Below are positions 3,535 through 22,424 of a stretch of DNA of 64,000 nt, one piece after another. The position numbers were made by a program, and so were the translations under genes. Below the pieces are notes generated by a model. The model had not been told where the DNA came from. It searched no databases and saw only the letters and a program-made list of their open reading frames with translations. Position 1 is the stretch's first letter, and every line of letters starts with the position of its first letter. Origin of the DNA: an uncultured bacterium (GTDB lineage Bacteria; Patescibacteriota; Microgenomatia; UBA1400; PJMF01); the NCBI GenBank assembly GCA_903842795.1, contig CAIMNJ010000011.1, forward strand, positions 3,166-67,165. Direction: 5' to 3'.

Positions 3535-6236
3535 CTTTGACTTTCTTTTTTTTGTTCATCTTCCTTAATCTTTTTTGCTGCTTCGCAAAAAGCTTTACCT
3601 CTTTCTTCGTAATTAGCAAAGCTATTGAAGCTGGCGCTGGCAGGACTTAATAATACAATGTCCCCAGAGTTGGCTTGCTTGTGAGCTGTGTCCACAGCTT
3701 CAGCAATTGTTTCTACCTTTTGAACTAATTGAGCGGGATTGTTTCCTAGTGTAAATTCAATTAATCTGGCTCCAGTAGTTGGTAGAGCGATTAACAACTT
3801 AACTTTATATTCAGCAATAATTTGAGCCAATTCGCTAAAATCTTGATTTCTTTCATAGCCGCCAGCAATCAGAATAACTGAACCCTTTGCAAAACTTCTG
3901 ATAGCCATCATGGCGGAATGGGGATTTGTAGAAATTGAATCATTAAAATATTTAACTCCATTGATTTCTGTTACAAATTCAATGCGATGTGGTAGACCAC
4001 GGAAATTCTTAATAGTTTTCTCAATTGAGTGATTTGTTGCCTCAAATAACTTCCCAACTAAGATTGCAGGCATAACATTGTAGAGATTGTGTTCTCCAAG
4101 AAGAGGAATGTCTTTGATTGCAATAATCTCTTCATTTTGGTAAAAGATTTTGTCATTTTTTTTGTAGACAAGTATTTCCTCATCTTGTTTTAAGTCGTGT
4201 CTGAGTTTTTTTGCAATACTGAGTTTTGCCATTTGATTGCTACCAGATAGCTTTGGGTTATAAATCAGATAATCATTTTCTTTTTGGTAGCGGGCGATAG
4301 CGGTTTTGGCTTCAAAATAACTTGCAAAGTCTTTGTAGTAATCCAAATGCTCTGACTTTATATCAAGAACTACTCCAACATGTGGACTATCGGTAAGTTC
4401 AGCTAATTGGTGACAAGATAATTCATCAACAATAAGTGTGTCTTTAGAAATTTTATCTAGCTGATTTAATGGAGCATCACCAATATTTCCAAGTAATATG
4501 ACTTTTTTTCCAGCGTCGCGCAAAATTTCATAGGTCAATTTACTAGTGGTACTTTTGCCTTTGGTGCCAGTAATACCGATAATTGTGCCCTGACATAAGG
4601 TAAAAAATATTTGTGTGTTTGATAAAATTTCACTTCCTTTGGCAATTGCTTTGGCAATTTCTTTAGTAGTAATTGGAATACCGGCTGTTTTGATAATGAT
4701 TTCGTATTGGTCAATTTTTTCTAGATAATTTTTGCCGAAGTAAGTTTTAATATTTTGGTCTTTGCTAAACGATTTTTCATGCTCATCTGCGATGGCGATT
4801 TGTTTATTTGGAAATTTTTTTCTCAAGAAATCAAGGGTTGATATCCCTTCGCGTCCCATGCCCAAGATAAGAACTGATTTTTTAGAAAGTTTATCCATCA
4901 ATTCTGTTTCTGCAATTTTTTGTTTGATTTGTTTTAAAAACATTGGTGGTGACTTGCTTTTTTTGTAGGCTAATACCAATGCTTGGCGAACTTCTGCAAA
5001 TGTGCCAACGCATTCAAAGGGTTTTTTATTTCCAAAGCCAGCTAAATCTAAAAAAGTTTGTTTTAGTGATTTTTTGGCAAAGAGATTTTCACTAAAAATT
5101 TTATTGCTTACAATTTCTTCTTCCAAGAACGCTGAAAACATGGTGTAGACGAAAGCACATTTTGGACAATCTTGGCACCAAATTCCTTTTTTTTGTCCGA
5201 CATTGCAACTCCTTAGAACTTCAAGAATTTTTTCAAATCTTTTGTCTTTAGTAGCGAATTGGCATAATCTTTGTGCGATTTCCAGTTCTGACAAAGATCT
5301 TAGTAGGGACAAATATTTTGGAAAATCATTTTTTTCTGAGAAAAGTTGTTCTTGACTATATTGGCTGAACTTTTTTTCAAAATCCAAGCTTTTAGAATAT
5401 TGGTGATTAATTTTTTGTCCCAAATAAATAAGATTTTCTTCCTCACTACTGGCTTCATTGCCAAGTAAAATATTTTCTTGACCATAAAGATAAGCAATAG
5501 ATGAGCCGGCAAAGGCAAGATAAGAGCTAAATGGAGTATGACCATTTAAATATCCTTGTTTATTCATTTCCAATAAGGTTGGATCGATGCTGCGCTCAGC
5601 TTCAATAATATTTTTACAATAACCATTTTTTTGTAAAATTAGAGCAATCTCTTTGGCTGCGGCAGAGTGTGGAGCAAGTAAAAATATATCGTAAGGCAAT
5701 TTCCTTTCTTCTATCATGGCTAAAACTGTAGAAGAGTCTTTTCCTCCGCCAACTGGTACAAGAATAGAGGAATTTTTTGGTGGATTAAATTTTGTTGTTA
5801 ATCCTTCTATTTCTGATGTTTTTTCTAATTTTATTTTAATGAAATCTTCTTTTGTAAAGTCAATTTTGTTTTGATAATAGAATTCACCAAGACCCTTAAT
5901 TAGGAGATCATGCCAAAAACTTTTGTTTTTTTCTGTAATTTGTCCTTGATGTTTAACGACTATTTCTTTTGGGCAAGCAACTTTGAAGTAGCTTGGAATT
6001 TCAGCCATTCCAAGATGAAAGAATAATTTGTTTAATTGCGGGTCTAGGGTTTCTTTGGTGGAAATTTGATTAATTATTTCTTGACTTATATTTTTGATTT
6101 TTAATTTTGGGTAAAATTTTATATTTGGTTCGAGTTCAAGGTCAAAAGTCAAAATCAGATCATTGTTTTCTTTTTTAAAATCAAATCCCCAATAAATCAG
6201 TCTAGGATGTTTTTTTCTTAAACTTTTGATGTCCAT
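3531..6236 (-). CDS. murD: UDP-MurNAc-L-Ala--D-Glu ligase (MurD) carrying an N-terminal ~470-aa PP-loop-like domain
   Basis: The C-terminal half has MurD motifs 'GITGTKGKSTT', 'LLGNIGDAPL' and 'ELSCHQLAEL' (ELSSFQL), plus an N-terminal Rossmann 'ILGMGREGIS'. The N-terminal half has 'VPVGGGKDSSTVL' (an SGGxDS-like PP-loop) and a 'CNVGQKKGIWCQDCPKC' Cys cluster. Start is placed at MDIKSLRK (6236) rather than ORF-track 6320, to avoid overlap with the divergent gene starting at 6297. Confidence 0.75.
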   Translation of the reverse strand: MDIKSLRKKHPRLIYWGFDFKKENNDLILTFDLELEPNIKFYPKLKIKNISQEIINQISTKETLDPQLNKLFFHLGMAEIPSYFKVACPKEIVVKHQGQITEKNKSFWHDLLIKGLGEFYYQNKIDFTKEDFIKIKLEKTSEIEGLTTKFNPPKNSSILVPVGGGKDSSTVLAMIEERKLPYDIFLLAPHSAAAKEIALILQKNGYCKNIIEAERSIDPTLLEMNKQGYLNGHTPFSSYLAFAGSSIAYLYGQENILLGNEASSEEENLIYLGQKINHQYSKSLDFEKKFSQYSQEQLFSEKNDFPKYLSLLRSLSELEIAQRLCQFATKDKRFEKILEVLRSCNVGQKKGIWCQDCPKCAFVYTMFSAFLEEEIVSNKIFSENLFAKKSLKQTFLDLAGFGNKKPFECVGTFAEVRQALVLAYKKSKSPPMFLKQIKQKIAETELMDKLSKKSVLILGMGREGISTLDFLRKKFPNKQIAIADEHEKSFSKDQNIKTYFGKNYLEKIDQYEIIIKTAGIPITTKEIAKAIAKGSEILSNTQIFFTLCQGTIIGITGTKGKSTTSKLTYEILRDAGKKVILLGNIGDAPLNQLDKISKDTLIVDELSCHQLAELTDSPHVGVVLDIKSEHLDYYKDFASYFEAKTAIARYQKENDYLIYNPKLSGSNQMAKLSIAKKLRHDLKQDEEILVYKKNDKIFYQNEEIIAIKDIPLLGEHNLYNVMPAILVGKLFEATNHSIEKTIKNFRGLPHRIEFVTEINGVKYFNDSISTNPHSAMMAIRSFAKGSVILIAGGYERNQDFSELAQIIAEYKVKLLIALPTTGARLIEFTLGNNPAQLVQKVETIAEAVDTAHKQANSGDIVLLSPASASFNSFANYEERGKAFCEAAKKIKEDEQKKESQR

Positions 6237-6296
6237 AAACTCATTATAGCTTATATAACTGCGACTGTTGATGAAAAAACCTGATAAAATCAAACT

Positions 6297-7070
6297 ATGA
6301 AAGTTATGCAAACAAGTCAAATTTTTGGTTTTCCAATCCTTAGTGTTAGGAAACAGGAATTCTTTGATTCTTTGGATAGCTTTTTTTTAGAAAATAGACG
6401 AGACAAATCTCTTACCCTAAAGATTTTTACACCAAATCCCGAACAATTGGTTGTTGCTACAAATGATAAAATTTTTTCTTCAAATTTGTCCAAAGCAAAT
6501 TATCTTTTACCAGATGGGATCGGTTTGGTTTATGCCTCAAAAATTTTGAGTTTTTTTGGCAAAACTAAAGAAAAAATCAAAGAACGCATTGCTGGGGTAG
6601 AGGTGGTAGAGCATTTGCTTGACTTGATTAAAGAGCAAAAACTAAAAGCCTTAATTATCGGTGGGAGAGATTACAGTAATGCTGAAGATGTAGAATTTTC
6701 CTCCAATCTCTTCTGGACAGAGGGATATCAGGATAAATTTGAAATTTTATCTACTGAAGAAGCTGTTTTGACAGAAAAAATTAATGAGCTGAAACCAGAT
6801 TTGGTTTTTATTGCCTTTGGAGCTCCAGATCAGGAAAACTGGATTATTAATCACGAAAAATTATTAGAAGAAAACAAAGTTAGAATTGCCATGGCAGTTG
6901 GAGGCTCATTTGATTTTATTTTCAATAGAGTCAAGAGAGCTCCAGTTTTTGTTCAAAAACTTGGCTTTGAATGGCTTTGGCGCCTCATAAAACAGCCATG
7001 GAGAAGACACAGACAATTACGCCTACTCAGTTTCATTTGGCTGGTTATTAAGGAAATTTTTAAGCGTTAG
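6297..7070 (+). CDS. WecB/TagA/CpsF-family glycosyltransferase (N-acetylmannosaminyltransferase-like)
   Basis: 'FTPNPEQLV', 'LPDGIGLVYASKIL', 'IAFGAPDQENW' and a C-terminal 'WLWRL' are typical of the TagA/WecG family; 257 aa. Confidence 0.75.
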   Translation: MKVMQTSQIFGFPILSVRKQEFFDSLDSFFLENRRDKSLTLKIFTPNPEQLVVATNDKIFSSNLSKANYLLPDGIGLVYASKILSFFGKTKEKIKERIAGVEVVEHLLDLIKEQKLKALIIGGRDYSNAEDVEFSSNLFWTEGYQDKFEILSTEEAVLTEKINELKPDLVFIAFGAPDQENWIINHEKLLEENKVRIAMAVGGSFDFIFNRVKRAPVFVQKLGFEWLWRLIKQPWRRHRQLRLLSFIWLVIKEIFKR

Positions 7071-8593: not shown

Positions 8594-8642
8594 ATATTTG
8601 TTCCTTTCTTATTACTTTATTATTAACTTCTAACCTAACTAA

Positions 8643-9146
8643 TTATTTTTTGTCGGCAATTGCCTTCATGACATACACCAAGTTACGGGCGTTGGCCTTA
8701 AGAACATTGACCAAACCTTGACCTGGAGACTTAAGTCTTTGAATCAACATGACGATCATTTCGTTCTTACCTGGCAATTTACTTAGAGCTTTGACTTCTT
8801 CAACAGAGAGGACTTTGCCATCCATGTAACCTTGCTTGATGGTTAAGAGTTCTTTGTCATCGTGGAATTGCACCAAAGCTTTGATAGCGGCGACTGGGTC
8901 GTTGTAAGAAAAAATAGCTGCACTCATGCCTTGGAGTGATTCGCTAAGCTTACCTTTGCCGACGGCAATATCGATTAAAGTGTTCTTGGTGACAAACATT
9001 TCACCACCAGCTTCTACTAGAGCAGCACGGAGTTCAGTTAAGTCTTTGACGTTGGTGCCAGCATAGTCAATAACGACCATGGAAGCAGCTCTGTCCAATT
9101 TTTCTTGGACAATTTTGATTTGTTCTTGATTGTGTTGGTTTGGCAT
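8643..9146 (-). CDS. rplJ: Ribosomal protein L10
   Basis: 167 aa; 'VVIDYAGTNVKDLTELRAAL...FVTKNTL'; sits immediately upstream of rplL. Confidence 0.95.
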   Translation of the reverse strand: MPNQHNQEQIKIVQEKLDRAASMVVIDYAGTNVKDLTELRAALVEAGGEMFVTKNTLIDIAVGKGKLSESLQGMSAAIFSYNDPVAAIKALVQFHDDKELLTIKQGYMDGKVLSVEEVKALSKLPGKNEMIVMLIQRLKSPGQGLVNVLKANARNLVYVMKAIADKK

Positions 9147-9360
9147 AAAATGCTTTCAAATACTACTAAAATTACTATTTTCTAGTTTGTTGCAAAATAA
9201 GTGGGGAAATGCAGGGAAGATAAATAACAAAAAGCTATTTTCCTCGGTGCGATTTTTAACTTCTACTTGGCTTTTGCTTATATAGAAGCCACACTGTCTT
9301 TGGAACAAGACTTGCATTATACAACTATTTGTATTTTTTAGAAAGAGGAAGTCTAGAAGA
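9147..9360 (-). promoter_or_regulatory. rplJ 5' leader (candidate L10(L12)4 autoregulatory leader)
   Basis: ~210-nt untranslated region upstream of rplJ. Bacterial rplJ leaders commonly carry an L10-binding structure. No specific structure was verified here. Confidence 0.3.
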
Positions 9361-9549
9361 CTAACTGTCTAAGACTTTTTGCCAAAGTTGCATACCATGA
9401 ATGCTGAGAGCCCATTGCTGGCCAGATTCGCCAAGCTCCATCCAATGCTCAATGCACCATTTCTCATCGTTCATGTTAGCAACTACAGTTTCGTAACTGT
9501 CTCCAGTTTGTACTTCTTCCTCATCTTCTTTTCTTGCTTTTTCTACCAT
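9361..9549 (-). CDS. Hypothetical small acidic protein
   Basis: 62-aa ORF with no recognisable motifs. Confidence 0.3.
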   Translation of the reverse strand: MVEKARKEDEEEVQTGDSYETVVANMNDEKWCIEHWMELGESGQQWALSIHGMQLWQKVLDS

Positions 9550-9633
9550 ATTGACTAATTATAATCTCTTATTTCTATAAAATAAATATTGCTTCTAGTA
9601 GATATATTTAAATGTGTTTATATTGAGTTTTAT

Positions 9634-10032
9634 ATGAATGAACATATTCGTGTTTCCACCGATGTACAAAAGAAGGGTATTAGACTTTCCTTGAAGTTTA
9701 GGGGGGATCTGGGATCAAATATTATGGATGCCTTCCAAGGAGATAATGACGAGGTGGTTAACGAGTGGTTGGCTGAGGAATTTTATGGTTACGAGAGTCA
9801 GGATCGAGAACCAATCACTATAGAAATGATTGAAAGATTTATTGTCAAAGCGCTTGAGAGTCCAAAAATTAGGCCTTTTTCTTCAATTTTTATAAACATT
9901 ATGGGAAGTTTGGATTTTAGTCATCAGCCAAGAGTAATTTATACAGAAACCCTTGCTAAGCAACCACCAAAGAGACCTCATTATCACGACCATGATAAAA
10001 GAGGACAAAAATATGGAGGGAGAAGAGGTTAG
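9634..10032 (+). CDS. Hypothetical protein
   Basis: ORF 9589..10032. The internal start 'MNEHIRV' at 9634 is preferred because it has a better upstream context. The C-terminal tail is basic, 'KRPHYHDHDKRGQKYGGRRG'. Confidence 0.4.
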   Translation: MNEHIRVSTDVQKKGIRLSLKFRGDLGSNIMDAFQGDNDEVVNEWLAEEFYGYESQDREPITIEMIERFIVKALESPKIRPFSSIFINIMGSLDFSHQPRVIYTETLAKQPPKRPHYHDHDKRGQKYGGRRG

Positions 10033-10130
10033 TAGAATTTGTTTTTCAGCTTGCAATCAAGCAGGGCTCGAAATACAATTGCGCCTGTGCTAAATAATTT
10101 TTCAAAAACTACTACTACCACTGCTTAGAA

Positions 10131-10185
10131 GCGGGGTTTTGTTATAGTTTGAAAAATAAAACCCCGCCAAGAGCGGGATTTTTTG
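10131..10185 (+). terminator. Terminator hairpin plus U-tract, with an upstream alternative 10-bp pairing
   Basis: 'CCCGCcaagaGCGGG' at 10163-10177 is followed by TTTTTT at 10179-10184. Upstream 'GCGGGGTTTT' at 10131-10140 is the exact reverse complement of 'AAAACCCCGC' at 10158-10167. Confidence 0.6.
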
Positions 10186-10268
10186 TATTTGGAAAAGTCT
10201 TGCTGAGCAAATTAATAAAAAAACCATTAAAATAACAATACTAAACTAATCAAACAAGGAAGGGCATT

Positions 10269-12311
10269 ATGCCAAATCATAAACAAATAAACCAAGAAGA
10301 TAAGCTTCTGCCAATGCGCCACAGCAGTGAGCATGTTCTCACCATGGTAATGGAGCGCTTGTATGGTAGTGATGAAAAAAATAATCCAGTAATTATCAAG
10401 GCTATGGGTCCAGCTATTGCTGATGGTTTCTATTTTGACTTCGATATCGCTGATAGCGCTAGAGAAAAAGGTTTAAAGATTACCGAAAAAGATTTTCCCA
10501 AATTGGAAAAAGAAATGAAAAAACTAATCCAGCAAGGGTTGTTGATGGAAAGAGTAGAAGTTTCAATGAAAGTAGCCAGACAAATTTTTGCTGACAATAA
10601 ATACAAGCAAGAACTTTTGGATGGCTTGGCCAATGCTGAGGATTTTGAACTCAGCGAATCAGTTAATGATGGCAAATCTCAAATCAAACATCAAATGCTA
10701 GAGAAAGGTCCGGTCAAACTGACTCTTTATTTGACCGGTCGTGCTGATCAAATTGAGGCAGATAAAAAATTGTTGGCGAGCATGGAAATTGCTTCTGGGA
10801 ACGATGCTGGCAGCATTAAATTGAGTTCTTTTGTTGATCTATGCAAAGGTCCTCATGTGGAAAAAATTTCTGAAATCAAAGCAGTTAAGCTGCTTAGTAT
10901 CGCAGGTGCTTATTGGCGTGGTAGTGAGAAAAACAAAATGCTCACTCGTATTTATGGAACGGCTTTTGGTTCGCAAAAAGACTTGGATGATTATTTGGCA
11001 AAAAAGCAAATGGCTGAAGAGCGTAATCATCGTAAAATTGGTAAGGAAATGGAGCTTTTTGCGATTATTCCTGAAATTGGTCAGGGCTTGCCGATTTGGT
11101 TGCCAAATGGTTATGCCATGCGTCGTGTTCTAGAAGACTACATGATGAAAATGGAGCGTCGCTTCGGGTATGTTCATATTTTGACTCCACATATTAATAG
11201 AAAAGAATTATTTGAAAAATCAGGACATTTAGGCTTTTATGATGAAAGTATGTACCCACCTTTGACCTATGAAGAAAAAAATGATTCGGGTGAATTAATT
11301 GAAGATTCTGCTGAGGTTTATTATCCCAAACCAATGAACTGCCCAGCAGGAATGATGGTTTATAAGCTCAAGAGTCATAGCTACCGCGATTTACCAATTA
11401 AGATGGGCGAGTTCGGTACGGTTTATCGTCGCGAAAAGTCAGGTGAATTGCATGGTTTGCAGCGCGTGCGTGGTTTTACGCAAAATGATGCTCATATTTT
11501 TTGTACGCCAGAGCAACTGAAAGATCAGTTTAAAGAAGTAATGAAGATGCTGGACATTTTCTATAAAGACATGGGTTTTGACAACTATCATTTCCGCTTG
11601 TCGCTTTCTGATCCAGAAAAGGCTAAATTTCAATCTTGTGGCAAGCGTAGTGATTGGGACAAGGCTGAAAATATTTTGCGCGAAATCCTTAATGAAGCCG
11701 GTGTTGAATATGTAGAAGCCAAGGGCGAAGCAGCTTTTTATGGTCCAAAACTCGATGTACAAGCAGTTAACGTGTTTGGCAAAGAAGATAGTATTTCCAC
11801 CATCCAGGTAGATTTCAATCTGCCAGAGCGTTTTGACATTACTTATGTTAATGAAAAAGGCGAAAATCAACGACCATTCGTAATTCATCGTGCTTTGATT
11901 GGCTCTTTTGAGCGCTTTTTCTCATTTTTGATCGAGCATCATGGTGGAAATTTCCCTGTTTGGCTTGCTCCTGTGCAAGTTAAAATTTTACCAATTGCTG
12001 ACCGTCATTTGGATTATGCACGCAAAATATTTAATCAGCTTTTGGATCAAAATGTTCGCGTTGAATTAGATGATCGCTCCGAGCGTTTGCAGGCCAAAAT
12101 ACGTGCTAGTGAGGTGGCTAGAGTGCCAGTGATGCTAATCATTGGTGACAGCGAAATTGAAGCGAATAAAGTTGGTGTGCGCGTGCGCGGCAAAGCTCGT
12201 GAAAGAGCAGAAAAACTCATCAAAAATGGGGAGCTTAAGGCAGAAATTAGCGCCAGCGGTGATCTTGGTGGTTTAGATCTTGAAGCTTTGCAACAATTTT
12301 TGGTTAAATAA
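10269..12311 (+). CDS. thrS: Threonyl-tRNA synthetase
   Basis: 680 aa. N-terminal 'RHSSEHVLTMVMERLYG' is the ThrRS second-additional/editing H-x-x-x-H motif. Class II core motifs include 'FRLSLSDPEK' and 'FYGPKLD', and there is a C-terminal anticodon-binding domain. Confidence 0.95.
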   Translation: MPNHKQINQEDKLLPMRHSSEHVLTMVMERLYGSDEKNNPVIIKAMGPAIADGFYFDFDIADSAREKGLKITEKDFPKLEKEMKKLIQQGLLMERVEVSMKVARQIFADNKYKQELLDGLANAEDFELSESVNDGKSQIKHQMLEKGPVKLTLYLTGRADQIEADKKLLASMEIASGNDAGSIKLSSFVDLCKGPHVEKISEIKAVKLLSIAGAYWRGSEKNKMLTRIYGTAFGSQKDLDDYLAKKQMAEERNHRKIGKEMELFAIIPEIGQGLPIWLPNGYAMRRVLEDYMMKMERRFGYVHILTPHINRKELFEKSGHLGFYDESMYPPLTYEEKNDSGELIEDSAEVYYPKPMNCPAGMMVYKLKSHSYRDLPIKMGEFGTVYRREKSGELHGLQRVRGFTQNDAHIFCTPEQLKDQFKEVMKMLDIFYKDMGFDNYHFRLSLSDPEKAKFQSCGKRSDWDKAENILREILNEAGVEYVEAKGEAAFYGPKLDVQAVNVFGKEDSISTIQVDFNLPERFDITYVNEKGENQRPFVIHRALIGSFERFFSFLIEHHGGNFPVWLAPVQVKILPIADRHLDYARKIFNQLLDQNVRVELDDRSERLQAKIRASEVARVPVMLIIGDSEIEANKVGVRVRGKARERAEKLIKNGELKAEISASGDLGGLDLEALQQFLVK

Positions 12312-12329
12312 ATGGACTGATTTAGTTTT

Positions 12330-12725
12330 ATGGAAAATTTTGCTGCCCAAATTGCCAATCTAACTAAAAAAACCATCGAAGGCCAAAAACCCAGCTGGAA
12401 AAATGCTTTGTCGCGTAAATTGATCGCTGCTTTGGAGGGCAAAAACCCAAATAAAATTGCTGAAACAGTTGAGGAAGAGCCTGAACCAACCAAAGAAACA
12501 ATAGTTCAGCACAAGCAATGGACTTCTGTAGAAAATAATTTGAGCTACGAACGTTTTAATCTTCACCCTGAAACAGGAGTGAAGCAATTTTTCATGGAAG
12601 TCATGGGTCCTTATGGCAATCCATTTATTATTCCTGAACCGGATCTAGCTTTCGATGTTCCAAGTGGTTTGCAATATGTAAATATTAAAGGTGAACAAAA
12701 AGATTTAGAAAAATCTGGTTTTTAA
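12330..12725 (+). CDS. Hypothetical protein (first gene of thrS-linked operon)
   Basis: 131 aa; starts 19 nt after thrS; no motifs recognised. Confidence 0.5.
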   Translation: MENFAAQIANLTKKTIEGQKPSWKNALSRKLIAALEGKNPNKIAETVEEEPEPTKETIVQHKQWTSVENNLSYERFNLHPETGVKQFFMEVMGPYGNPFIIPEPDLAFDVPSGLQYVNIKGEQKDLEKSGF

Positions 12726-12734
12726 TATATTGGC

Positions 12735-13013
12735 ATGGATGGGGCAGAGGTTTGGCAGAAAAATAAAATTTCCGGCATTATTTGTCAAGATGGCGGGACC
12801 GATGTTTATCGCTTTAGTTTTTCTAATCCAAAGGCACCAAAATTTGAGGTCAATGAAGAAGGTGTGATTATTAATGGTGAGCAATGGTATCTCAAGGTGC
12901 TTTTTTCCAAAGATGCTCAGAGAATTGGCAATTTTGATGCCTATTATTCTCGCCAAAAACCAGATGTGGTGCGCGTTATTGAGATGGGAGATATAAATTG
13001 GGACAAGATTTAG
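12735..13013 (+). CDS. Hypothetical protein
   Basis: 92 aa, tightly packed between flanking genes. Confidence 0.5.
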   Translation: MDGAEVWQKNKISGIICQDGGTDVYRFSFSNPKAPKFEVNEEGVIINGEQWYLKVLFSKDAQRIGNFDAYYSRQKPDVVRVIEMGDINWDKI

Positions 13014-13026
13014 ATATAATTAACCT

Positions 13027-16000
13027 ATGAATCAAGAAGCCTCCGCAATCGTTGAAGAATTATTACAAAAAGAACGCAGCCTTAGCGCACTAAAGAATGC
13101 TGAACAACAAGCCGGAACAGGTTCTTTTATTTTTTCCGATGAAGCAAATCTGTTTAAAGGAGAACCGTCTGCCGAACTTATGGATGTGGTTGGTAGACTT
13201 AATGCCAGAGGAATAAATGTTGCAATTTTTACTTCAGACAATCCAGATAATTTAGAAACATCAGCCCTAAGAGATCAACTCACCCAAGCTAATGGTTTGG
13301 GTAGTTATTCTGATGGAACGCTGCAAGTCAATACTTTGGCCTGTGTCTGGAACAATAAAACAACCGATGGAAGAAAAGAATTGGATTGTGTTACCGGCGC
13401 TGGTATAGGCAGATATATTGGAGATTCTCAAGTTAATAGTTTAGTTAATCATGTTGTTGATGAGGGTTATTATGTTGACGATTTCAGTGCAGGATTTACT
13501 AATGGTTTGACTGAAATCGATCAAATCTTGGCAGCCAGGGAAGCTCAGGCTACTCAACAAGCAGCTCAACCAACAGCTACTCCTTATGCTGAAACTGACA
13601 CTACTCCAATAGAAATCCAGCCTTCAGAATCTCGTCCAAACTTTATGGAAACTCATGGCAGAGAAGTTTATGGTGGTGTGACAGCAGTAATTTTAATGGC
13701 TTTGGTTGGGGCTGATCAGATGTTTGCCAAACCAAAGCGTCTTTTTGTTAAGGGTATTGAATCAGACAGAAGGTCGGCTTTGAATGAAGCAACTAAGTTG
13801 AATTTAGATTTTGGAAAGGGTCTTTCTCTTTTTGATGCAATTATTTCAGAGTACGGTGAGTCTTATCCTGAAAAAGCAAATCAAGCCAGAGAAGATCGCT
13901 CTGTTTTTTCGGAAAAAGTAGATGAAGTTAAAGCTGCTGCTGAAGAGCTAAAATTAGCAAAAGTTGGTTTTTTCCGTAAAAAAGAAGACATGGAAGACGT
14001 AAGAGTAGCTGCTAAAAAATTGCGCACTAAAGCGATGGAATTATTGCGCTTAATAGGCGATCAAAGCAACAAGGCAGAAGATCTGCAAGAGAGAAAGAAC
14101 TCTGCCCGCACCAATGCTGCTGCCGCCAAAGAGAAGCTGGCTGAAGTTAAAGATGTTTGGTATGTAGAAAAATTCAAAGTTTTTGGAGAGATCTTGCCAC
14201 CAAAAGATAAGGCCATGGTCGGTATTGAATCTTTGGCAAAAGAAGCTTTTGATAATGCCTACTACAATACAGCCCTAGCCCTCAAAGGTAATGATCAGGC
14301 TGTTGAAGTGCTTGGTTTGTTAGATAAGTTTATGTTGGCAGTTGGTGCTTTGACCAGTGGTTATGAAATTGCTGATGGATTATATAGAGATGCTGGTTCG
14401 GACATTGCGAAGTGGCCAAATAAGGCAATTGATCTCAAGCAATTGGCTAATTCTGGAATACAGTTACTGACTACTGCCAAAGCAGGTATATCGATCACTG
14501 AAAAGCTTGATGAGGTGATTAGGTTATCTAAAGCAGCTGAGGTGGAATTTGCAAATGCTAAGGATTTCTCTAGTGCAACTGCTACTATTTTGAAACAGCA
14601 AGATGAAAATGATGCGGCAATTGCCGAAATTGAAGAAAAAGGTTTTGAAGATAAACATATTAAAAAGTTCCGTGACGCTATGGTTGAAGCTCTTAGTAAA
14701 GCTAATGTTTTTGCTTCTCAAGGCAATTGGAAGGAAGCGCATGCTCAACTTGGTGTTTTAAGAGTGAAAACCAATGAATCTCTTATTGAGATGAAGCGCT
14801 TAGAACAATTACAAAAACAAAATATTATTGATTTGGAAAATCTTGCCAAGGAGGTGGAAAAAGACAAAAAACGCTATGCCGGTGAGACCACTAAAGCTTG
14901 GACTGATTTGAGTGAAAATTTTGTGCCAGCTAACTACGATGAAAAGGACAAAATTTGGAAAGAGTTGAGAGAAGGATCTGGGTCTGGTGAAAAAATAGTA
15001 ATTGCCGACCTCAATCCATATTTTGCAGCAATTGCTTTGACTCTCAAAGAACTAACTGATGATAAGTCAGACGAAAACGATATTGCCAGTAAAGCTTCTA
15101 GTAGAAATTCTTTTGAAGAACAAAAGTTTGATGAATCTGCAACTCTAATTCGAAAAATGGAGAAAAGGTTGGCAGAGTCTCGTCAAATGATGGATGCGCT
15201 ATTAGAGCGTCAAAAATTAGCCAACAAATCAAAGTCCGAATATTCTGCAGCAATTGTTAATTCATCTGCCCGTCTGGAAGCAGCTGAGGAATCAATTGAT
15301 ACGAAAGAAGAAAACCGCTTAGTAGATAAAGAGGTTGATGAGCAGATCAAGAATGCCAGAAAATTTATTGATTTGGCAGAAAGAGCCGGCAAAGCTTCTA
15401 TATACGTTGCTGCTTTGGAAGCAGCCAATAGAGCGACAGATTTAGCAATAAGAGCAAGACAAAGCGCTGAAGCACAGATAAAAGCTCTCAAAGAACTTTA
15501 TTCAAAACTAGAAAGTCATAAAAAGAGTAGTAATGCTGCTGCCAACAAGGCTATTCAGGCTGTAATAGATGAATCAGATGAAGTAATTACCTCTGCTACC
15601 ACAAATATTCAGAATGCTTTGCAAAGAAGTTTGGCAGCTTTGGTTACGGCAGAAAGTGCTTTAGCTGCTAAAGAAGACCATGTCTTGTCTAAGGCAATAG
15701 AAGATCTTTTAGGTGATCTTGATCAGGTTGATGAAAAAACAGAAGAGCTTGAGCAGGCTTTCAAATCTGATCGCAATAGCTATCAAGATTTACTTGATGA
15801 TTTAAAGAGAGCTATTGGTGATGCTGATTCAGCTATTAGTAGAGCTAGTTCAAAGTGTAATGACCCTGATGCCGGTTCTGCCGGAGATGGAGCCCTAGGC
15901 TCAGCCAGGTCTTCTAATCCAGACATGGCAAGTTGGGGGGAGTCTAGATCTAGTATTAAATCAAAAATACAAGCTGCTAAGCGTGCTGAAGATTATGCTG

Positions 16001-16173
16001 ACAGCGCTTATAATCAGGCTAGCAGCGCAATTTTAGCTGCTGAGCAAGCAAGACAAAGAGAACTAGAAAGACAAAGAGAGGCGCAGAGAGCTAGGGAGAG
16101 AGCTGCTGAACAAGCGAGAGAAGCTAGCAGAACCGTTAATTCTGTTGGTGGACATGCTAGTAGGAAAATCTAA
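13027..16173 (+). CDS. Large (1048-aa) coiled-coil-rich hypothetical protein
   Basis: An N-terminal ~230-aa globular region and a hydrophobic segment 'GGVTAVILMALVGADQMF'. This is followed by ~800 aa of heptad-like charged helical sequence (E/K/A/L-rich). The C-terminus is 'RQRELERQREAQRARERAAEQAREASR'. Confidence 0.6.
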   Translation: MNQEASAIVEELLQKERSLSALKNAEQQAGTGSFIFSDEANLFKGEPSAELMDVVGRLNARGINVAIFTSDNPDNLETSALRDQLTQANGLGSYSDGTLQVNTLACVWNNKTTDGRKELDCVTGAGIGRYIGDSQVNSLVNHVVDEGYYVDDFSAGFTNGLTEIDQILAAREAQATQQAAQPTATPYAETDTTPIEIQPSESRPNFMETHGREVYGGVTAVILMALVGADQMFAKPKRLFVKGIESDRRSALNEATKLNLDFGKGLSLFDAIISEYGESYPEKANQAREDRSVFSEKVDEVKAAAEELKLAKVGFFRKKEDMEDVRVAAKKLRTKAMELLRLIGDQSNKAEDLQERKNSARTNAAAAKEKLAEVKDVWYVEKFKVFGEILPPKDKAMVGIESLAKEAFDNAYYNTALALKGNDQAVEVLGLLDKFMLAVGALTSGYEIADGLYRDAGSDIAKWPNKAIDLKQLANSGIQLLTTAKAGISITEKLDEVIRLSKAAEVEFANAKDFSSATATILKQQDENDAAIAEIEEKGFEDKHIKKFRDAMVEALSKANVFASQGNWKEAHAQLGVLRVKTNESLIEMKRLEQLQKQNIIDLENLAKEVEKDKKRYAGETTKAWTDLSENFVPANYDEKDKIWKELREGSGSGEKIVIADLNPYFAAIALTLKELTDDKSDENDIASKASSRNSFEEQKFDESATLIRKMEKRLAESRQMMDALLERQKLANKSKSEYSAAIVNSSARLEAAEESIDTKEENRLVDKEVDEQIKNARKFIDLAERAGKASIYVAALEAANRATDLAIRARQSAEAQIKALKELYSKLESHKKSSNAAANKAIQAVIDESDEVITSATTNIQNALQRSLAALVTAESALAAKEDHVLSKAIEDLLGDLDQVDEKTEELEQAFKSDRNSYQDLLDDLKRAIGDADSAISRASSKCNDPDAGSAGDGALGSARSSNPDMASWGESRSSIKSKIQAAKRAEDYADSAYNQASSAILAAEQARQRELERQREAQRARERAAEQAREASRTVNSVGGHASRKI

Positions 16174-16193: not shown

Positions 16194-16225
16194 AAAAAAC
16201 CCGCCTTTTTTGAGGCGGGTTTTTA
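16194..16225. terminator. Bidirectional rho-independent terminator
   Basis: 'AAAAAACCCGCCttttttgaGGCGGGTTTTT' lies between convergent genes (the 13027 ORF and rplA). Confidence 0.7.
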
Positions 16226-16248: not shown

Positions 16249-16980
16249 TTATTCCTCTTCAGTTTCTTCAATGAGGACCTTGATTCCTGGACCCATACTT
16301 GGAGAAAGACTTAATTTAACAATTTTGCCTTTCAAAGCTTTGGTTAGAGCTTCAACGTTCTCAACCAAATCAGCGCCACTCATATCGGTTTTGCCGATAA
16401 CTAAGTGCATTAAAGGAGCTTTCTTTTCAGTTTTGAGATTGAATTTACCAGCTTCCAACTCTTTTTTCTTGAGTTCTGGATTTGGGGTCAAAGTACCATT
16501 TTTTGGATTTGGCATTAAGCCTTTTGGACCAAGAACTTTGGCAAATCTGGCCAATTTTGGCATAAACTCTGGATGAGCAACCAAAATTTCATAATCAATT
16601 TTGCCAGCTTCGATGTCGCTTAAAACTTGAGCATCAACGATGGTAACCTTGACGGTTTTACCGGTAGAGTGTGGCAAAGCTAAACTGACGTTGTCACCAA
16701 TTTCTTTGACGACGACGTGAGCTTCAACTGAACCAACAAATTTGCTGTAAGAAAGCTTTTTAACTAGTTCGACAGCCTCTTTGCTAGAGTAAAATTTACT
16801 CTTATCCAATTGAGAGCGTACAGCCTGATATTTTTTACCGCGGACTTTTTTGGCTTTGGCTGGTTTTTTTTCAGCTTTTACCTCTACATCATCAGTTTGC
16901 ACTGATTCTTTTATTTCTGTTTCGACAGTTTTGACCTCAACTTCATTTGCAGTCATGTCGACATTTTTTTTGCTTCCCAT
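16249..16980 (-). CDS. rplA: Ribosomal protein L1 with ~45-aa N-terminal extension
   Basis: 'KKYQAVRSQLDKSKFYSSKEAVELVKKL...FDETVEAHV'-type L1 core, 'GKTVKV' and 'AKVLGPKGLMPNPKNGTLT'. It is preceded by a charged extension 'MGSKKNVDMTANEVEVKTVETEIKE...'. Confidence 0.9.
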   Translation of the reverse strand: MGSKKNVDMTANEVEVKTVETEIKESVQTDDVEVKAEKKPAKAKKVRGKKYQAVRSQLDKSKFYSSKEAVELVKKLSYSKFVGSVEAHVVVKEIGDNVSLALPHSTGKTVKVTIVDAQVLSDIEAGKIDYEILVAHPEFMPKLARFAKVLGPKGLMPNPKNGTLTPNPELKKKELEAGKFNLKTEKKAPLMHLVIGKTDMSGADLVENVEALTKALKGKIVKLSLSPSMGPGIKVLIEETEEE

Positions 16981-17046
16981 AATTTACTTTCTGGTGGTGC
17001 AAGCGGCTAGGGTAAAGTTTGAGCCTCCCACCTTATTATTTTATAT
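16981..17046 (-). promoter_or_regulatory. rplK-rplA intergenic region; candidate L1-binding (23S-mimic) element
   Basis: The mRNA-sense sequence 'GGUGGGAGGCUCAAACUUUACCCUAGCCGCUUGCACC' can form a closed hairpin (GGUG...CACC). L1 is known to autoregulate through an rRNA-mimic site in the L11-L1 mRNA. Only the stem closure was observed; the mimicry was not verified. Confidence 0.25.
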
Positions 17047-17469
17047 TTATACGATGTCAACGCCCATAGATTTGGCAGAACCAATGACACTATTCATAGC
17101 AGAATCAATGTTGTTGGTGTTCATATCTGGCATTTTCTTTTCTGCAATGGCTCTGACTTGATCCATGGTTAATTTGGCCTTATTATCTTTGCCTGCAGTA
17201 GCACTACCAGCTTTCATTCTGAGAGTTTGTTTGATCAAATCTGAGACTGGAGGCAACTTCAAAACAAAAGTGAAGGAATTGTTCTCAAAAATAGTAATTT
17301 CTGCTGGGATGATTTGACCTTTTTGGTCAGCTGTAGCAGCATTATATTGTTTAAGAAAATCCATCATGTTGATACCAGCTTGACCCAAAATTGGACCGAC
17401 TGGAGGGGCTGGAGTAGCAGTACCAGCTGGAAGATTTAATTTCAAAATTGACTTAACTTTTTTAGCCAT
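17047..17469 (-). CDS. rplK: Ribosomal protein L11
   Basis: 'KLNLPAGTATPAPPVGPILGQAGINMMDF' carries the canonical L11 motif PAPPVGPxLG. Confidence 0.95.
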   Translation of the reverse strand: MAKKVKSILKLNLPAGTATPAPPVGPILGQAGINMMDFLKQYNAATADQKGQIIPAEITIFENNSFTFVLKLPPVSDLIKQTLRMKAGSATAGKDNKAKLTMDQVRAIAEKKMPDMNTNNIDSAMNSVIGSAKSMGVDIV

Positions 17470-17564
17470 ATTATTTTCTTTCGATTGTTATTTTTTTATT
17501 TAACCATTTTTTGTGGAGAAGCTCGGCATCCCTAATGTCGACCACAAGTGGTTTGTGTCTATTT

Positions 17565-18185
17565 TTATACTTTTTTGACTTGCAAGAAGTCTAATTCCAC
17601 TGGAGTTTCTCTTCCAAAAATATTGAGAAGTACAGTGACTTTACCTTTTTCTTCATCAATTTTATCGACTGTTCCCAAGAAATCATTAAATGGACCGTCA
17701 ACAACTTTGACAGCTTCACCATCAACGAAATCGGCTTTGTAAGAAGCTTCACCAGATTGCTCGGTGTATTTCATGATAGCTTCAACCTCACTTTTTGGTA
17801 GTGGAGTGGGTTTGCTGCTCATACCGACAAAACCAGTAACGCCATCAGTGGTACGAATTGCCAACCAGGCGTCATCGGTCATTTCCAATTTGACCAACAT
17901 GTAACCTGGGAAAATTTTCTCACTAACGGTTTTTCTTTGACCTCTGCGAATTTGAATTTTGTCTTGAGTTGGAATCAAAACTTGAATTATTTTGTCAGTT
18001 AAATGGAGGGTTTGAGCACGTTGGCGCAAAGCCTCAGCAATTTTCTTTTCATGACCAGAATAAACGTGAACAACATACCAACGAGCTTTTTTGTTGTCGA
18101 CATCAGAAATGTTAACCAAGTTGGGAGAAGAGACTCTCACTTCTTGAACTTCTGGGATTTCTGGCACTTGCATTTGATCGGTCAT
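17565..18185 (-). CDS. nusG: Transcription termination/antitermination factor NusG
   Basis: NGN domain 'WYVVHVYSGHEKKIAEAL' and a KOW domain 'GEAVKVVDGPFNDFLGTVDKIDEEKGKVTVLLNIFGRETPVELDF'. Confidence 0.9.
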   Translation of the reverse strand: MTDQMQVPEIPEVQEVRVSSPNLVNISDVDNKKARWYVVHVYSGHEKKIAEALRQRAQTLHLTDKIIQVLIPTQDKIQIRRGQRKTVSEKIFPGYMLVKLEMTDDAWLAIRTTDGVTGFVGMSSKPTPLPKSEVEAIMKYTEQSGEASYKADFVDGEAVKVVDGPFNDFLGTVDKIDEEKGKVTVLLNIFGRETPVELDFLQVKKV

Positions 18186-18224
18186 AATTCCTTTTTTTGG
18201 TGATTCCTTTTACAAAGGAGAATA

Positions 18225-18407
18225 TTATATCAGAATTCCCATGATTTTTTGTAGGAGAAAATCAATGCCTCCAAGATAAGCGGAGAGTAGGGCTGCTACC
18301 AAGACAACTAGCAAGGTCATGTTTTGAGTATTTTTCTTGCTTGGCCAAGTAGTTTGCTTTAGTTCAGTTGTGACTTCTCTAAAGTAGTTTCTGATTTTTG
18401 CTAACAT
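18225..18407 (-). CDS. secE: Preprotein translocase subunit SecE
   Basis: 60 aa with a single C-terminal TM segment; 'REVTTELKQTTWPSKK'; sits directly upstream of nusG. Confidence 0.75.
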   Translation of the reverse strand: MLAKIRNYFREVTTELKQTTWPSKKNTQNMTLLVVLVAALLSAYLGGIDFLLQKIMGILI

Positions 18408-18471: not shown

Positions 18472-20439
18472 TTATAACTTTAGTGGTTTGTCTTCAGGAA
18501 TTTTGACTTCTTCTGTTGGTTTTTCCTCGTGACCATTTTGATCGTTATTGCGACCATCATAAGGTACACTCCATGGATCTTTTTTAGCTTTGGCGATGGA
18601 AGAAATGATCAAAGCGATAGCAATGAGTAAGATTAATCCAGCAATTGCTAGCCATTGCCATGAGAAGTTGGCCAACATTTGACCTAAGCTAGTTTGAAAT
18701 GGAGAAGTTTTTTTCTCGACTATAGTTGGTGCGCTAGTTGGCTCTGTCTTGGCACTATTGCTGGCAGATTGTTCTTTGTTGGTGGTAGAGCCAGTCACAC
18801 AAGAAATATCTTCTGGATCATCTGCTAAGCGGCATTTTCCTTTATAGCAGCGCATATCTGCTTCACAATCACGGTTGTTGTTGCAACCTTGGTTACAACT
18901 ATTAGTGGTCAGGTCAGTGGCTTCGCTTGGCAAAAGAATAGTTCTGCCAGAACTGTCTGTGTAGGAATTTATATTGCTGCCACCTTTATTTGAAGACAGT
19001 GAGGAAGATGAATTTATAGCAACCTTCTTCACATCACAGGTGGTGCTTTCCAGATTTTTTGGATCTCTGCAACGATTCCAGAAACAAGTTAGGCCAACTC
19101 CACAGTCATTGTTGCTGGCACAATATTCATTGCAACTACGATCGGAAGTTTGAATTCCTGGAGTAGCAAGACAAGCATTGTTACTTGGATTGGTTGCGTT
19201 TCTACATAAACCTTCAGCAGTACAGACTAGTCCAGGAGCACAGCTCTTGCTTTGATCACTGGTTGGACCACACTGATCATTACAATTCTTATATTTGCTC
19301 TGGTCGCCACTGCAATAGGTGATGTAATAGCGCACTGAGGAGATGTGTTGTCCGCCATTATCAGTGCTAAAAAGACGGAAGAAATATTCTTTATTTGGCT
19401 CAAAACTAATTGGACCCTTGGTGCCAGTGGCATGGGTAAATCCTTTAGCTGTCACCATAATCCAGTTGCCATTTGTTTGGTCAATGTTGCCGGCAACTTT
19501 TTTGTGATAAAAATCTCCAAAGTTTGGACTGGTGCTCACATCAATGTAAGTTACATTTGGATATTTTTTGTTGTCCCAGATTACGTATAGAGAATCTCCC
19601 TCAGTTGGTTGATTGAGACATTTATCGTTTGAAGAAAGGTAGAAGAAGCTACTGTTGGCATTAACAACACTATTGTCGGTACACTTCTGACTCAATTCTT
19701 TTAAGGTTTCGTCCTCATACCATTGACATCTTTCTGGTTGTGTTGAGTATTGTCTAGTTTGCCAGCCATTTTTACATTCTCCCCAAGAGGTATATTCGTA
19801 ATGACATTGAGAACGGTCAATACCATTGGTGGTTACGTAATATTGGAAATCTAAGACAGTTGGTTTTTGCAAAATATCTTCTGAAGTTTCATGTTCAATA
19901 ACGGTACTGTCTTGGCTGATTTTAATTTTGACACTACCTTCTTTTTTTGGAGTGAATTTTAGTTGAGAGATGGTTCTCATCTGGTTGTGGGTAGAAAAGG
20001 TAACGGCAGGATCTTTGGTGTTTAGAAGCAAAGTGACTGTGTAGCAATCTTTTTCACAAATACTTTCGACTACTTCTTGTTTGCTAATCTCTAATTCTGC
20101 TGGATAAGTTTCAGTAAAACTAATTTTGCTTTTATCTAAGAGACCTTTATCGACAATAATCTCAAAAATCAATTCTATTGCGTCTACTGACTTGTCTTTT
20201 GTGTTTAATTGCAAATTGATTTTTTGTTCTTCATCAACTTTGAGAGTACTCTGATCAAAAGGATAAGTATTGAGCTCTGCTAATCCAGAATCAACCATAG
20301 CAGCTTTTCTAGTGTCTAAGCTTAATTCGGAAGCTGGTTTTTTGAGGAACATGACTGCTAGTAGGGCAATCGACATAACTAGGACAATAAAAAATAAGCC
20401 GAAAACGGCCAGACGATTGCTTTTTTTAGTTTGCAGCAT
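18472..20439 (-). CDS. Cys-rich modular cell-surface protein (signal-anchor, FN3-like region, three 6-Cys modules, C-terminal TM)
   Basis: N-terminal TM 'LAVFGLFFIVLVMSIALLAVMFL'. Three tandem modules with spacing near C-x3-C-x5-C-x5-C-x4-C-x10-C: 'NCNDQCGPTSDQSKSCAPGLVCTAEGLCRN...AC', 'SCNEYCASNNDCGVGLTCFWNRCRD...TC' and 'SCNQGCNNNRDCEADMRCYKGKCRL...SC'. C-terminal TM 'WLAIAGLILLIAIALIISSIA' followed by a charged tail. Confidence 0.6.
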   Translation of the reverse strand: MLQTKKSNRLAVFGLFFIVLVMSIALLAVMFLKKPASELSLDTRKAAMVDSGLAELNTYPFDQSTLKVDEEQKINLQLNTKDKSVDAIELIFEIIVDKGLLDKSKISFTETYPAELEISKQEVVESICEKDCYTVTLLLNTKDPAVTFSTHNQMRTISQLKFTPKKEGSVKIKISQDSTVIEHETSEDILQKPTVLDFQYYVTTNGIDRSQCHYEYTSWGECKNGWQTRQYSTQPERCQWYEDETLKELSQKCTDNSVVNANSSFFYLSSNDKCLNQPTEGDSLYVIWDNKKYPNVTYIDVSTSPNFGDFYHKKVAGNIDQTNGNWIMVTAKGFTHATGTKGPISFEPNKEYFFRLFSTDNGGQHISSVRYYITYCSGDQSKYKNCNDQCGPTSDQSKSCAPGLVCTAEGLCRNATNPSNNACLATPGIQTSDRSCNEYCASNNDCGVGLTCFWNRCRDPKNLESTTCDVKKVAINSSSSLSSNKGGSNINSYTDSSGRTILLPSEATDLTTNSCNQGCNNNRDCEADMRCYKGKCRLADDPEDISCVTGSTTNKEQSASNSAKTEPTSAPTIVEKKTSPFQTSLGQMLANFSWQWLAIAGLILLIAIALIISSIAKAKKDPWSVPYDGRNNDQNGHEEKPTEEVKIPEDKPLKL

Positions 20440-22203: not shown

Positions 22204-22276
22204 GCCTTTGTAGCTCAGTCGGTAGAGCGCAGTCTTGGTAAGACTGAGGTCTCGGGTCCGATCCCCGACAAAGGCT
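22204..22276 (+). tRNA. tRNA-Thr (anticodon GGU)
   Basis: Cloverleaf by eye: acceptor GCCTTTG/CAAAGGC, D-arm GCTC-AGTCGGTA-GAGC, anticodon stem CAGTC/GACTG with loop TTGGTAA, T-arm TCGGG-TCCGATC-CCCGA. CCA is not encoded. Confidence 0.85.
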
Positions 22277-22313
22277 CACTTGCAAAGGCGCGCTGCGCGC
22301 GCCATCTGCAAAA

Positions 22314-22395: not shown

Positions 22396-22424
22396 CAGAT
22401 CTCTAGCTTACAAAGGGAGAATTT

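Follow-up and report, generated by a model that had tools for sequence, protein, structure and literature searches.

We analyzed the genes lying downstream of thrS in a stretch of 64,000 nucleotides (nt) from contig CAIMNJ010000011.1 of an uncultured member of the Patescibacteriota; hereafter this whole stretch is called the window and all spans refer to positions within it, with L-numbers indicating related loci or contigs and P-numbers the representatives of protein clusters. The thrS gene (10269-12311, + strand) encodes a threonyl-tRNA synthetase of 680 amino acids (aa) carrying the Pfam domains tRNA-synt_2b (1.1e-44), HGTP_anticodon (8.2e-19) and tRNA_SAD (4.7e-13), and its ratio of non-synonymous to synonymous substitution rates (dN/dS) is 0.011 with respect to L002, a contig from a 95%-identical strain. 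On the same strand follow two short open reading frames (ORFs), ORF1 of 131 aa (12330-12725) and ORF2 of 92 aa (12735-13013), and then the gene of a 1048-aa protein (13027-16173), hereafter called the giant. A previous interpretation of the locus made from the DNA letters, which we call the sequence-only reading, described this layout correctly but took it for three genes, with spacers of 19, 10 and 14 nt that in fact measure 18, 9 and 13 nt, each claimed figure being one too high. It also placed a strong terminator only after the last gene, and indeed the bidirectional intrinsic terminator at 16195-16224 (13 pairs, 6 G-C), common to the giant and the convergent rplA, is the sole strong + strand terminator 3' of thrS; downstream of the giant, rplA, rplK, nusG and secE are all on the - strand. 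Upstream of thrS, a bidirectional terminator-like hairpin with T-runs on both sides (10158-10182; 11 pairs, 5 G-C) marks the start of a putative transcription unit that, together with the hairpin at 16195-16224, is bounded to ~6 kb; Rfam searches detected no leader RNA or T-box upstream of thrS. Since the genes are co-directional, tightly spaced and served by a single common terminator, the co-expression with thrS proposed in the sequence-only reading is plausible in the sense of co-transcription, but not in that of a conserved functional operon (see below).

The two short ORFs are parts of a single gene. They share one frame (12735 - 12330 = 405) and have between them nothing other than a TAA codon and three further codons, while L002, the giant of which is 98% identical to that of the window, carries AAA (Lys) at the site of the TAA (12723-12725) and thereby a single ORF of 224 aa. 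The proteins P0004-P0007 (156-166 aa) are likewise single chains that align to the C-terminal part of ORF1 plus all of ORF2, and both halves are encoded as one protein in 45 other Patescibacteria clusters. ORF1 and ORF2 are thus the N-terminal and C-terminal fragments of one gene interrupted by a nonsense codon (12330-13013, +, one frame throughout), hereafter called the small gene, and the accessory genes behind thrS are two, not three. The stop is real and fixed in the window strain instead of being a sequencing error, because its truncated products recur in independent assemblies: the 131-aa product is identical to P0003, present on 11 contigs from at least six assemblies, and the 92-aa product corresponds to P0037, present on nine contigs. 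All contigs carrying the stop are ~100% identical to the window. Reassignment of the stop codon was rejected as an explanation, since TAA is the main stop codon of the window and terminates 34 of its 49 genes, thrS among them. Nor is the missing Shine-Dalgarno motif 5' of ORF2 informative, given that even a loose match to this motif occurs in just 14 of the 49 window genes. Compared with the 95%-identical strain, the stretch covering ORF1 has a dN/dS of 0.084, that covering ORF2 one of 0.006 (25 synonymous and one non-synonymous differences) and the giant one of 0.054, and on this basis we regard all three as real coding sequences.

The nonsense codon sits in a clade-specific loop insertion of ~17 aa, in which a Lys codon would have mutated to TAA to yield the fragments of 131 and 92 aa. 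The ATG of ORF2, three codons past the stop, is a pre-existing Met of the intact gene (within KYIGMDG), at which the second fragment could be made by termination-reinitiation; both fragments might then reassemble. About equally likely, the small gene is a very recent pseudogene. Such a clean in-frame split offers a natural test of fragment complementation.

A profile search gathered 46 clusters of the small protein, all unannotated and without Pfam domains. The named members all belong to Patescibacteria (Peregrinibacteria, Magasanikbacteria and "Patescibacteria group"), and a scan of species-representative genomes located the protein in 10 species of Pacebacteria, Gracilibacteria, Peregrinibacteria, Magasanikbacteria, Peribacteria and other lineages. 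The AlphaFold2 (AF2) model of the member P0005, built from a 45-sequence alignment, has a predicted local distance difference test (pLDDT) score of 94.8 and a predicted template modeling (pTM) score of 0.87, and displays 12 beta-strands with no helices. ORF1 comprises a clade-specific helical extension of ~55 aa and strands 1-5, with the motifs KQWT, GPYGNP and EPDLAF, while ORF2 comprises the last seven strands (6-12), with the motifs KIxGIICQ, RFSFSNPKAPKFE, LFSKD and FDAYY; the nonsense codon falls between strands 5 and 6. The protein has no hydrophobic segment, its maximal Kyte-Doolittle (KD) value being 0.58 (KD19). No structural neighbor was found in PDB or BFVD, the family profile did not match any PDB sequence, and Foldseek comparison with viral models returned weak matches to MORN repeats only; these repeats, as well as the Rhs/teneurin YD shell and OspA, are beta-hairpin-repeat or single-layer beta-sheet proteins that may be set beside the small protein. 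A match of ORF2 to PHROG_32566 (E = 8.8e-4) was taken as chance, being present in one of 45 family members only, and scans of the window proteins against NCBIfam, PHROGs and PADLOC gave nothing meaningful. From this modeling, the product of the intact small gene is predicted to be a cytoplasmic all-beta protein of ~225 aa, belonging to a Patescibacteria-restricted family without characterized relatives. If this is true, the analysis newly defines an all-beta family exclusive to Patescibacteria, which is modeled with confidence and for which no structural relative is known.

The giant was initially seen as an orphan: a word-indexed homology search retrieved only two relatives, a PDB sequence search with the giant alone had no match, and a three-sequence profile produced only noise from S100-A13 and vimentin in the same database. 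Exhaustive HMMER searches with the three-sequence profile overturned this appearance, retrieving a family of 115 cluster representatives, mostly of 985-1130 aa, 94 of which at E<=1e-10 and 39 at E<=1e-30. Full-length members range from 918 to 1129 aa (median 1033) and align colinearly. By sequence homology, therefore, the giant is a member of a real but unnamed family distributed in Chloroflexota and Patescibacteria, and not an orphan coiled coil. Approximately 60 of the 77 full-length representatives show a classic signal peptide, a domain of ~170 aa, a transmembrane (TM) helix and then ~800 helical residues; their TM helix, located around aa 170-250, is strongly hydrophobic (KD19 up to 3.2) and is flanked on its C-terminal side by a mean charge of +3.3 to +3.5. 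A signal peptide is missing from the window giant and from the 16 cluster representatives closest to it. Its absence is not an artifact of gene calling, because in-frame stops are present 1-11 codons upstream of the start in eight out of eight loci, the window showing one just one codon before the ATG; consequently, the Patescibacteria subfamily that includes the window giant has truly lost its signal peptide. Where the sources name the organisms, the proteins lacking the signal peptide are from Patescibacteria (P0051 and P0055) and those bearing it from Chloroflexota/Anaerolineae (P0124 and P0160). Giants without the signal peptide retain the TM helix and its positive flank, have very acidic N-terminal domains (net charge of -16 to -32) and conserve a pair of Cys residues (C106 and C121 in the window, at 13342-13344 and 13387-13389) that lie on adjacent predicted strands.

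The statement of the sequence-only reading that none of its three ORFs matches a family does not hold for the N-terminus of the giant, which is a TPM domain (aa 37-166; 13135-13524). This assignment follows from four sets of results. The Pfam profile PF04536 (TPM_phosphatase; TLP18.3/Psb32/MOLO-1) matches the giant with 23.9 bits against a gathering cutoff of 22.1, covering profile positions 2-124 out of 125, and it also matches P0001 (25.2 bits) and 11 of 47 relatives (best 3.2e-12). In Foldseek searches with the AF2 model of the giant, the four best PDB matches besides design artifacts are TPM structures, namely BA41 (5anp), Rhom172_1776 (7tbr), PG_0361 (2kw7) and TLP18.3 (3ptj), all with probability 1.0 and a target-normalized template modeling score (TMt) of 0.5-0.6. 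The profile of the 47 sequences, moreover, aligns with the Psb32-type protein Tll0404 (9i83; E = 9.5e-10) along signal peptide, TPM domain, linker and TM helix, besides matching 7tbr and 5anp. The AF2 model of aa 45-170, of moderate confidence (pLDDT 55-81), shows alternating helices and strands in an alpha-beta-alpha sandwich. The biochemistry of TPM domains is diverse and often non-catalytic, the phosphatase/nucleotidase or metal-binding sites not being conserved even among solved structures (PMC13456599). TPM domains have been proposed as chaperone-like assembly factors, including the YdjH type in which the domain is followed by a long coiled coil (PMC11237479), and the characterized TPM proteins (Psb32/TLP18.3, AscF and MOLO-1) are mostly auxiliary or assembly factors of membrane complexes (PMC11237479, PMC13456599).

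The TPM domain is followed by a linker rich in Q, A, T and P (aa 167-212; 13525-13662), which contains a conserved QPTAT motif and has low pLDDT and no regular structure. Then comes the single predicted TM helix (about aa 213-233; 13663-13725; KD19 maximum 1.56; helix 211-228 in the AF2 model) with the K/R-rich flank KPKRLFVKGIESDRR. The subsequent membrane-proximal region (aa 240-560; 13744-14706) is variable and coiled-coil-like, being all helical by DSSP of the AF2 model and of lower conservation, while the C-terminal helical core (aa 561-1040; 14707-16146) is the most conserved part of the family. This core has two motifs, LKELTDDKSDENDIAS at aa 673-688 and GSAGDGALGSARSSNP at aa 950-965, as well as a basic tail with RQRELERQRE; the protein terminates with a basic helix followed by SRTVNSVGGHASRKI, without LPXTG motif or anchor domain. 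Profile matches for aa 220-580 are only those of generic coiled coils (SMC6/SMC arms, methyl-accepting chemotaxis proteins, keratin and EzrA), and aa 640-1040 of the core have no Pfam or PDB match in profile searches. Alignment of core segments of ~90 aa with hhalign gave probabilities of 60-82% for internal repeats, a result that is suggestive only. Past the TM helix, the AF2 model is uniformly helical, with ~20 helices of up to ~70 residues each separated by breaks, at low confidence. Hence the sequence-only reading was right in describing an N-terminal globular part, one hydrophobic stretch, ~800 helical residues and a RQRELERQREAQRARERA tail, but the helical part is not one continuous heptad rod in this low-confidence model.

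Across related loci, this gene order is not kept. The frame formed by thrS (+), the small gene (+) and rplA (-) is found in four lineages with differing cargo. In the window and L002, the small gene is separated from rplA by the giant; L022-L024 carry AbiEi/AbiEii and BrnT/CopG cassettes in the interval from thrS to the small gene and lack the giant; L005 has the order thrS, Ldh_2, small gene, 538-aa gene, 537-aa gene and rplA; and L012, from Pacebacteria, has DUF2207, small gene and thrS, then rplA-rplK-nusG. Relatives of the small gene are otherwise in unrelated contexts, mostly without thrS and without any giant. Conversely, the giant occupies the thrS-rplA slot only in the lineage of the window and L002, and the loci of its relatives (L001, L025, L026 and L028-L032) are in unrelated contexts, neither thrS nor the small gene being present in any of them. 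Thus, the giant represents cargo specific to one lineage in a variable slot, and the trio does not constitute a conserved functional unit. When the co-occurrence of the trio across related genomes is checked in this way, giant relatives are found without thrS or the small gene and small-gene relatives without a giant; with the genes in such unrelated arrangements, the operon hypothesis fails as a proposal for a functional unit.

Between the window and L002, thrS and rplA are 97-100% identical at the nucleotide level. Identity drops to 73-80% across the 5' portion of the small gene (12299-12698), shows a second dip to 83% at 14299-14498 and is otherwise 92-100%. Synonymous divergence is 0.7-1.1 in the small gene vs. 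0-0.09 in the thrS and rplA flanks. These local drops of identity, together with the excess of synonymous divergence, suggest a mosaic arising from recombination with divergent alleles.

Various observations were made on the cargo of this slot and on the neighbors of giant homologues. L022 (1248-3244), and equally L023 and L024, the thrS of which is 86% identical, contains complete AbiEi/AbiEii and BrnT/CopG toxin-antitoxin pairs between thrS and the small gene; its 211-aa protein matches AbiEi in PADLOC, the sole match among the proteins scanned, given that either fragment of the small protein, its intact 224-aa form, the giant and the alternative cargo pairs had no PADLOC match, so that a reading of the small gene or the giant as defense genes finds no support. 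The thrS-small gene slot thus behaves like a small accessory or defense islet. Directly 3' of the small gene, L004 (3268-6532) and L005 (1950-5181) have gene pairs encoding 516/573 aa and 538/537 aa, respectively, with no Pfam or PADLOC match; the 573-aa protein of the one shares 29% identity with the 537-aa protein of the other (E = 4e-57). The summed length of each pair is approximately that of the giant, but a relation to the giant was rejected since BLASTP found none. In L012 (5777-8537; Pacebacteria CG2_30_36_39), the homologue of the small gene is directly 3' of a 683-aa DUF2207 membrane protein and 5' of thrS; a LemA or DUF2207 connection is unsupported, because DUF2207 adjoins the small gene in this locus only and no LemA domain was found.

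As to the giant homologues, P0002, a distant one, is flanked in L001 (8591-16360) by the genes of a Polysacc_synt flippase and of a Wzy_C protein of 1076 aa, within a glycosyltransferase cluster, a context that may hint at a link with envelope glycans, in this one locus. P0049 adjoins MscL, NUDIX and zinc-ribbon proteins in L025, where the region 3' of it (8638-10286) encodes two proteins, one of 195 aa that combines a zinc ribbon with repeated GSSN/GSS motifs and one of 349 aa whose zinc ribbon is C-terminal; these genes recall the partners of ydjFGHL-type operons and are seen next to the L025 giant only. In L029-L032 the homologue adjoins a histidine phosphatase, and in the Chloroflexota-type loci L026 and L028 it is among unannotated genes. 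A 229-aa all-helical protein directly 3' of the L026 homologue (5539-6228) looks PspA-like by eye and was discarded, having no match to Pfam PspA_IM30 or to PspA/Vipp1 in PDB.

We envisage the giant as a bitopic protein having its acidic N-terminal TPM part (~210-215 aa) outside the membrane, one TM helix and ~800 helical residues in the cytoplasm, a topology suggested by the homologues bearing signal peptides, by the positive-inside rule and by the colinear alignment of the family members. By analogy with Psb32/TLP18.3, AscF, MOLO-1 and YdjH, the TPM domain would most likely serve a complex of the envelope or membrane as its adapter or chaperone, and the helical part would form an elongated, probably oligomeric, submembrane scaffold coupling the TPM side to cytoplasmic partners. 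The cytoskeletal role contemplated in the sequence-only reading is possible in this form of a scaffold. Taken as a whole, the locus is best read as thrS accompanied, in a variable slot reaching to the convergent rplA, by a split all-beta gene and by the gene of a bitopic TPM-anchored submembrane scaffold or assembly factor, an account that we consider moderately probable.

Several known systems resemble the giant in part. The YdjH-type proteins of the Bacillus subtilis ydjFGHL operon likewise carry a long coiled coil behind their TPM domain (PMC11237479), whereas the giant has a helical region of ~800 aa with a conserved core of ~480 aa without Pfam model and no signal peptide; unlike YdjH and PspA-linked systems, moreover, it has no conserved pspA, band-7 or zinc-ribbon neighbors. 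Psb32/TLP18.3 proteins (Tll0404, 9i83; AtTLP18.3, 3ptj) match the giant family in fold and in the module of signal peptide, TPM domain, linker and TM helix. However, they end soon after the TM helix and serve photosystem II, whereas the giant family adds ~800 cytoplasmic residues and occurs in non-phototrophic Patescibacteria, the window copy being devoid of the signal peptide. In comparison with the canonical YgcG/Psb32 type, the giant has the TM helix after the TPM domain but no signal peptide, while its Chloroflexota-type homologues have both. The AscF/AscG proteins of the mycobacterial CIII-CIV supercomplex provide an example of a non-catalytic TPM adapter that is cytoplasmic and without signal peptide (PMC13456599); AscF is instead a small split TPM domain completed by AscG, without a long helical region, and no sequence relationship with the giant was detected. 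EzrA, finally, also combines a single TM helix with a long cytoplasmic helical region, a likeness to the giant that is architectural only. It has an N-terminal TM helix, spectrin-like repeats, ~560 aa and no ectodomain, and shows no significant homology to the giant: the match of the family profile to EzrA (4uxv) is weak (E = 0.007). As regards repeated three-helix bundles after the TM helix, as in EzrA-like scaffolds, the giant shows the weak repeats of ~90 aa suggested by hhalign, in a part where the AF2 tertiary structure is unreliable.

A number of points weigh against the account of a TPM-anchored scaffold. The window giant and its 16 closest relatives would have to export a domain of ~215 aa without a signal peptide, which needs an unusual translocation of the N-tail; the hydrophobic segment of the window protein, which has an Asp in it, is only moderate (KD 1.56); the AF2 model of the entire giant is of low confidence (mean pLDDT 48.7); no conserved neighbor or partner complex emerged among the giant loci compared; and the stop-carrying contigs are clonal, so that the dN/dS values cover no selection after the nonsense mutation. 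Additionally, a cytoplasmic TPM domain exists in AscF (PMC13456599), which makes such a location the chief rival to the topology with the TPM domain outside. In the Patescibacteria subfamily, the domain could have moved into the cytoplasm when the signal peptide was lost, with a re-entrant or peripheral anchor and a wholly cytoplasmic, membrane-associated scaffold, or the topology could have been inverted. Besides the precedent of membrane-attached TPM domains in the cytoplasm, as in AscF (PMC13456599), this possibility gains from the genuine absence of the signal peptide in all eight loci examined and from the weakness of the hydrophobic segment just mentioned. In Sec/YidC-dependent membrane insertion, export of N-tails longer than 200 residues without a signal peptide is generally rare. 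We nevertheless consider such a relocation or inversion unlikely, because the subfamily keeps a positive C-flank (+1 to +5) with a TM helix that is stronger in most members (KD up to 2.6), the acidity of the N-domain favors translocation, the conserved Cys residues on neighboring strands would be consistent with a disulfide outside the cytoplasm, and the colinearity with homologues bearing the signal peptide is retained.

A different objection concerns the joint meaning of the genes, for the small gene might be a fresh pseudogene and the giant an unrelated neighbor, with no function in common, within a recombination-prone accessory slot beside thrS. The fixation of the nonsense codon in one clonal population would fit this, as would the variable neighbors of both families, the content of the slot in relatives, where AbiE and BrnT/CopG cassettes or different cargo occupy it, and the peak of mosaic divergence over the small gene (73-80% nt identity vs. 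97-100% in the flanks). Yet the stop falls in a dispensable clade-specific loop with an in-frame Met directly after it, the strain carrying it persists in at least six samples, and the linkage of thrS and small gene recurs in four lineages. This explanation, which we rate as a serious possibility falling somewhat short of probable, is largely compatible with the account of a TPM-anchored scaffold and differs from it only on whether the fragments work.

The reading of the locus as a dedicated three-gene operon, with the giant as a coiled-coil fibril or adhesin outside the cell, or else as a secreted effector, appears very improbable and is largely refuted by the present data. It could draw on the long helical region with its single hydrophobic anchor and on weak generic profile matches to an M-protein chimera and to coiled-coil fragments of trimeric autotransporters; large surface proteins are, moreover, common in episymbionts of the candidate phyla radiation (CPR). 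But the genes are two instead of three, the arrangement of thrS, small gene and giant is not conserved, and the window giant has no signal peptide, none being possible upstream. M-protein-type fibrils and trimeric autotransporters have a signal peptide plus an LPXTG or beta-barrel anchor, which the giant does not have, and Pfam detects no wall-anchor or secretion domain in it or its relatives. The homologues with signal peptides, furthermore, place the N-domain outside and the helical part inside, with a positive cluster after the TM helix, so that the surface fibril or effector of the sequence-only reading is unlikely by the positive-inside rule too; the sharing of the family with Chloroflexota also argues against an effector of symbiosis. 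Least credible of all is a nucleotide-driven coiled-coil machine of the SMC or MukB type, or else a flagellar or hook-associated protein, an assignment that the sequence-only reading had opposed to its own and that Pfam does not find in the window giant or its relatives. The profile matches to the coiled-coil arms of SMC6 and SMC1A (E 1.7e-15 summed, best domain 3e-4) are confined to low-complexity arms and have large gaps, and FlgK_D1 is below threshold in P0002 (16 bits vs. a cutoff of 28.6) and absent from the window giant in Pfam searches. No ATPase head (Walker A/B), hinge or flagellar domain was identified by Pfam in 47 members including the window giant, the N-terminal part of which consists of a TPM domain with a TM helix behind it; this domain content refutes the possibility.

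Going beyond the account of a TPM-anchored scaffold, one may imagine a hitherto unrecognized family of spectrin- or EzrA-like submembrane cytoskeletal scaffolds, common to Chloroflexota and Patescibacteria, that read or assemble an envelope complex through a TPM ectodomain, the Patescibacteria members exporting an acidic, disulfide-bonded domain of ~215 aa without signal peptide by translocation of a long N-tail and the split small gene maybe giving, through termination-reinitiation, a two-piece protein, a combination that we judge, all parts being taken together, quite improbable. If the account of a TPM-anchored scaffold itself is right, the bitopic family with TPM domain, TM helix and long helical part of ~1000 aa would be one more trait linking Chloroflexota and Patescibacteria, and a candidate scaffold from envelope to cytoplasm in organisms without many canonical organizers of division and envelope. 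The subfamily without signal peptide also represents a natural test of whether long N-terminal domains can cross the membrane without it. The practical yield of the analysis lies in a corrected annotation (two genes, one of which is split), an assigned domain and a defined family; on present evidence, current understanding is unchanged.

Some other features of the window deserve mention. The + strand block formed by the ORF at 9589-10032, thrS, the small gene and the giant lies between rplJ (8643-9146, -) and rplA-rplK-nusG-secE (16249-18407, -), and therefore interrupts the ribosomal-protein cluster rplKA-rplJL that is usually contiguous. Between rplJ and thrS, the region 9361-10032 contains small ORFs of 62 aa (-) and 147 aa (+) with no family match, which are annotated as genes in the matching ENA/NCBI contig. 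Next to secE, a gene at 18472-20439 (-) encodes a 655-aa protein with an N-terminal TM helix (OppC_N-like match), several Cys-rich repeats (C..C..C), Ser/Thr-rich linkers and a C-terminal TM helix, which is probably a surface protein. The 929-aa protein encoded at 3531-6320 (-) has a MurD-like Mur ligase in its C-terminal 450 aa, preceded by an N-terminal extension of ~480 aa without Pfam match. Finally, a cluster of three tRNA genes is present at 22204-22498 and a fourth tRNA gene at 24366-24436; since the latter overlaps the 5' end of a 537-aa ORF (22788-24401, -), the start of this ORF is probably located further downstream.

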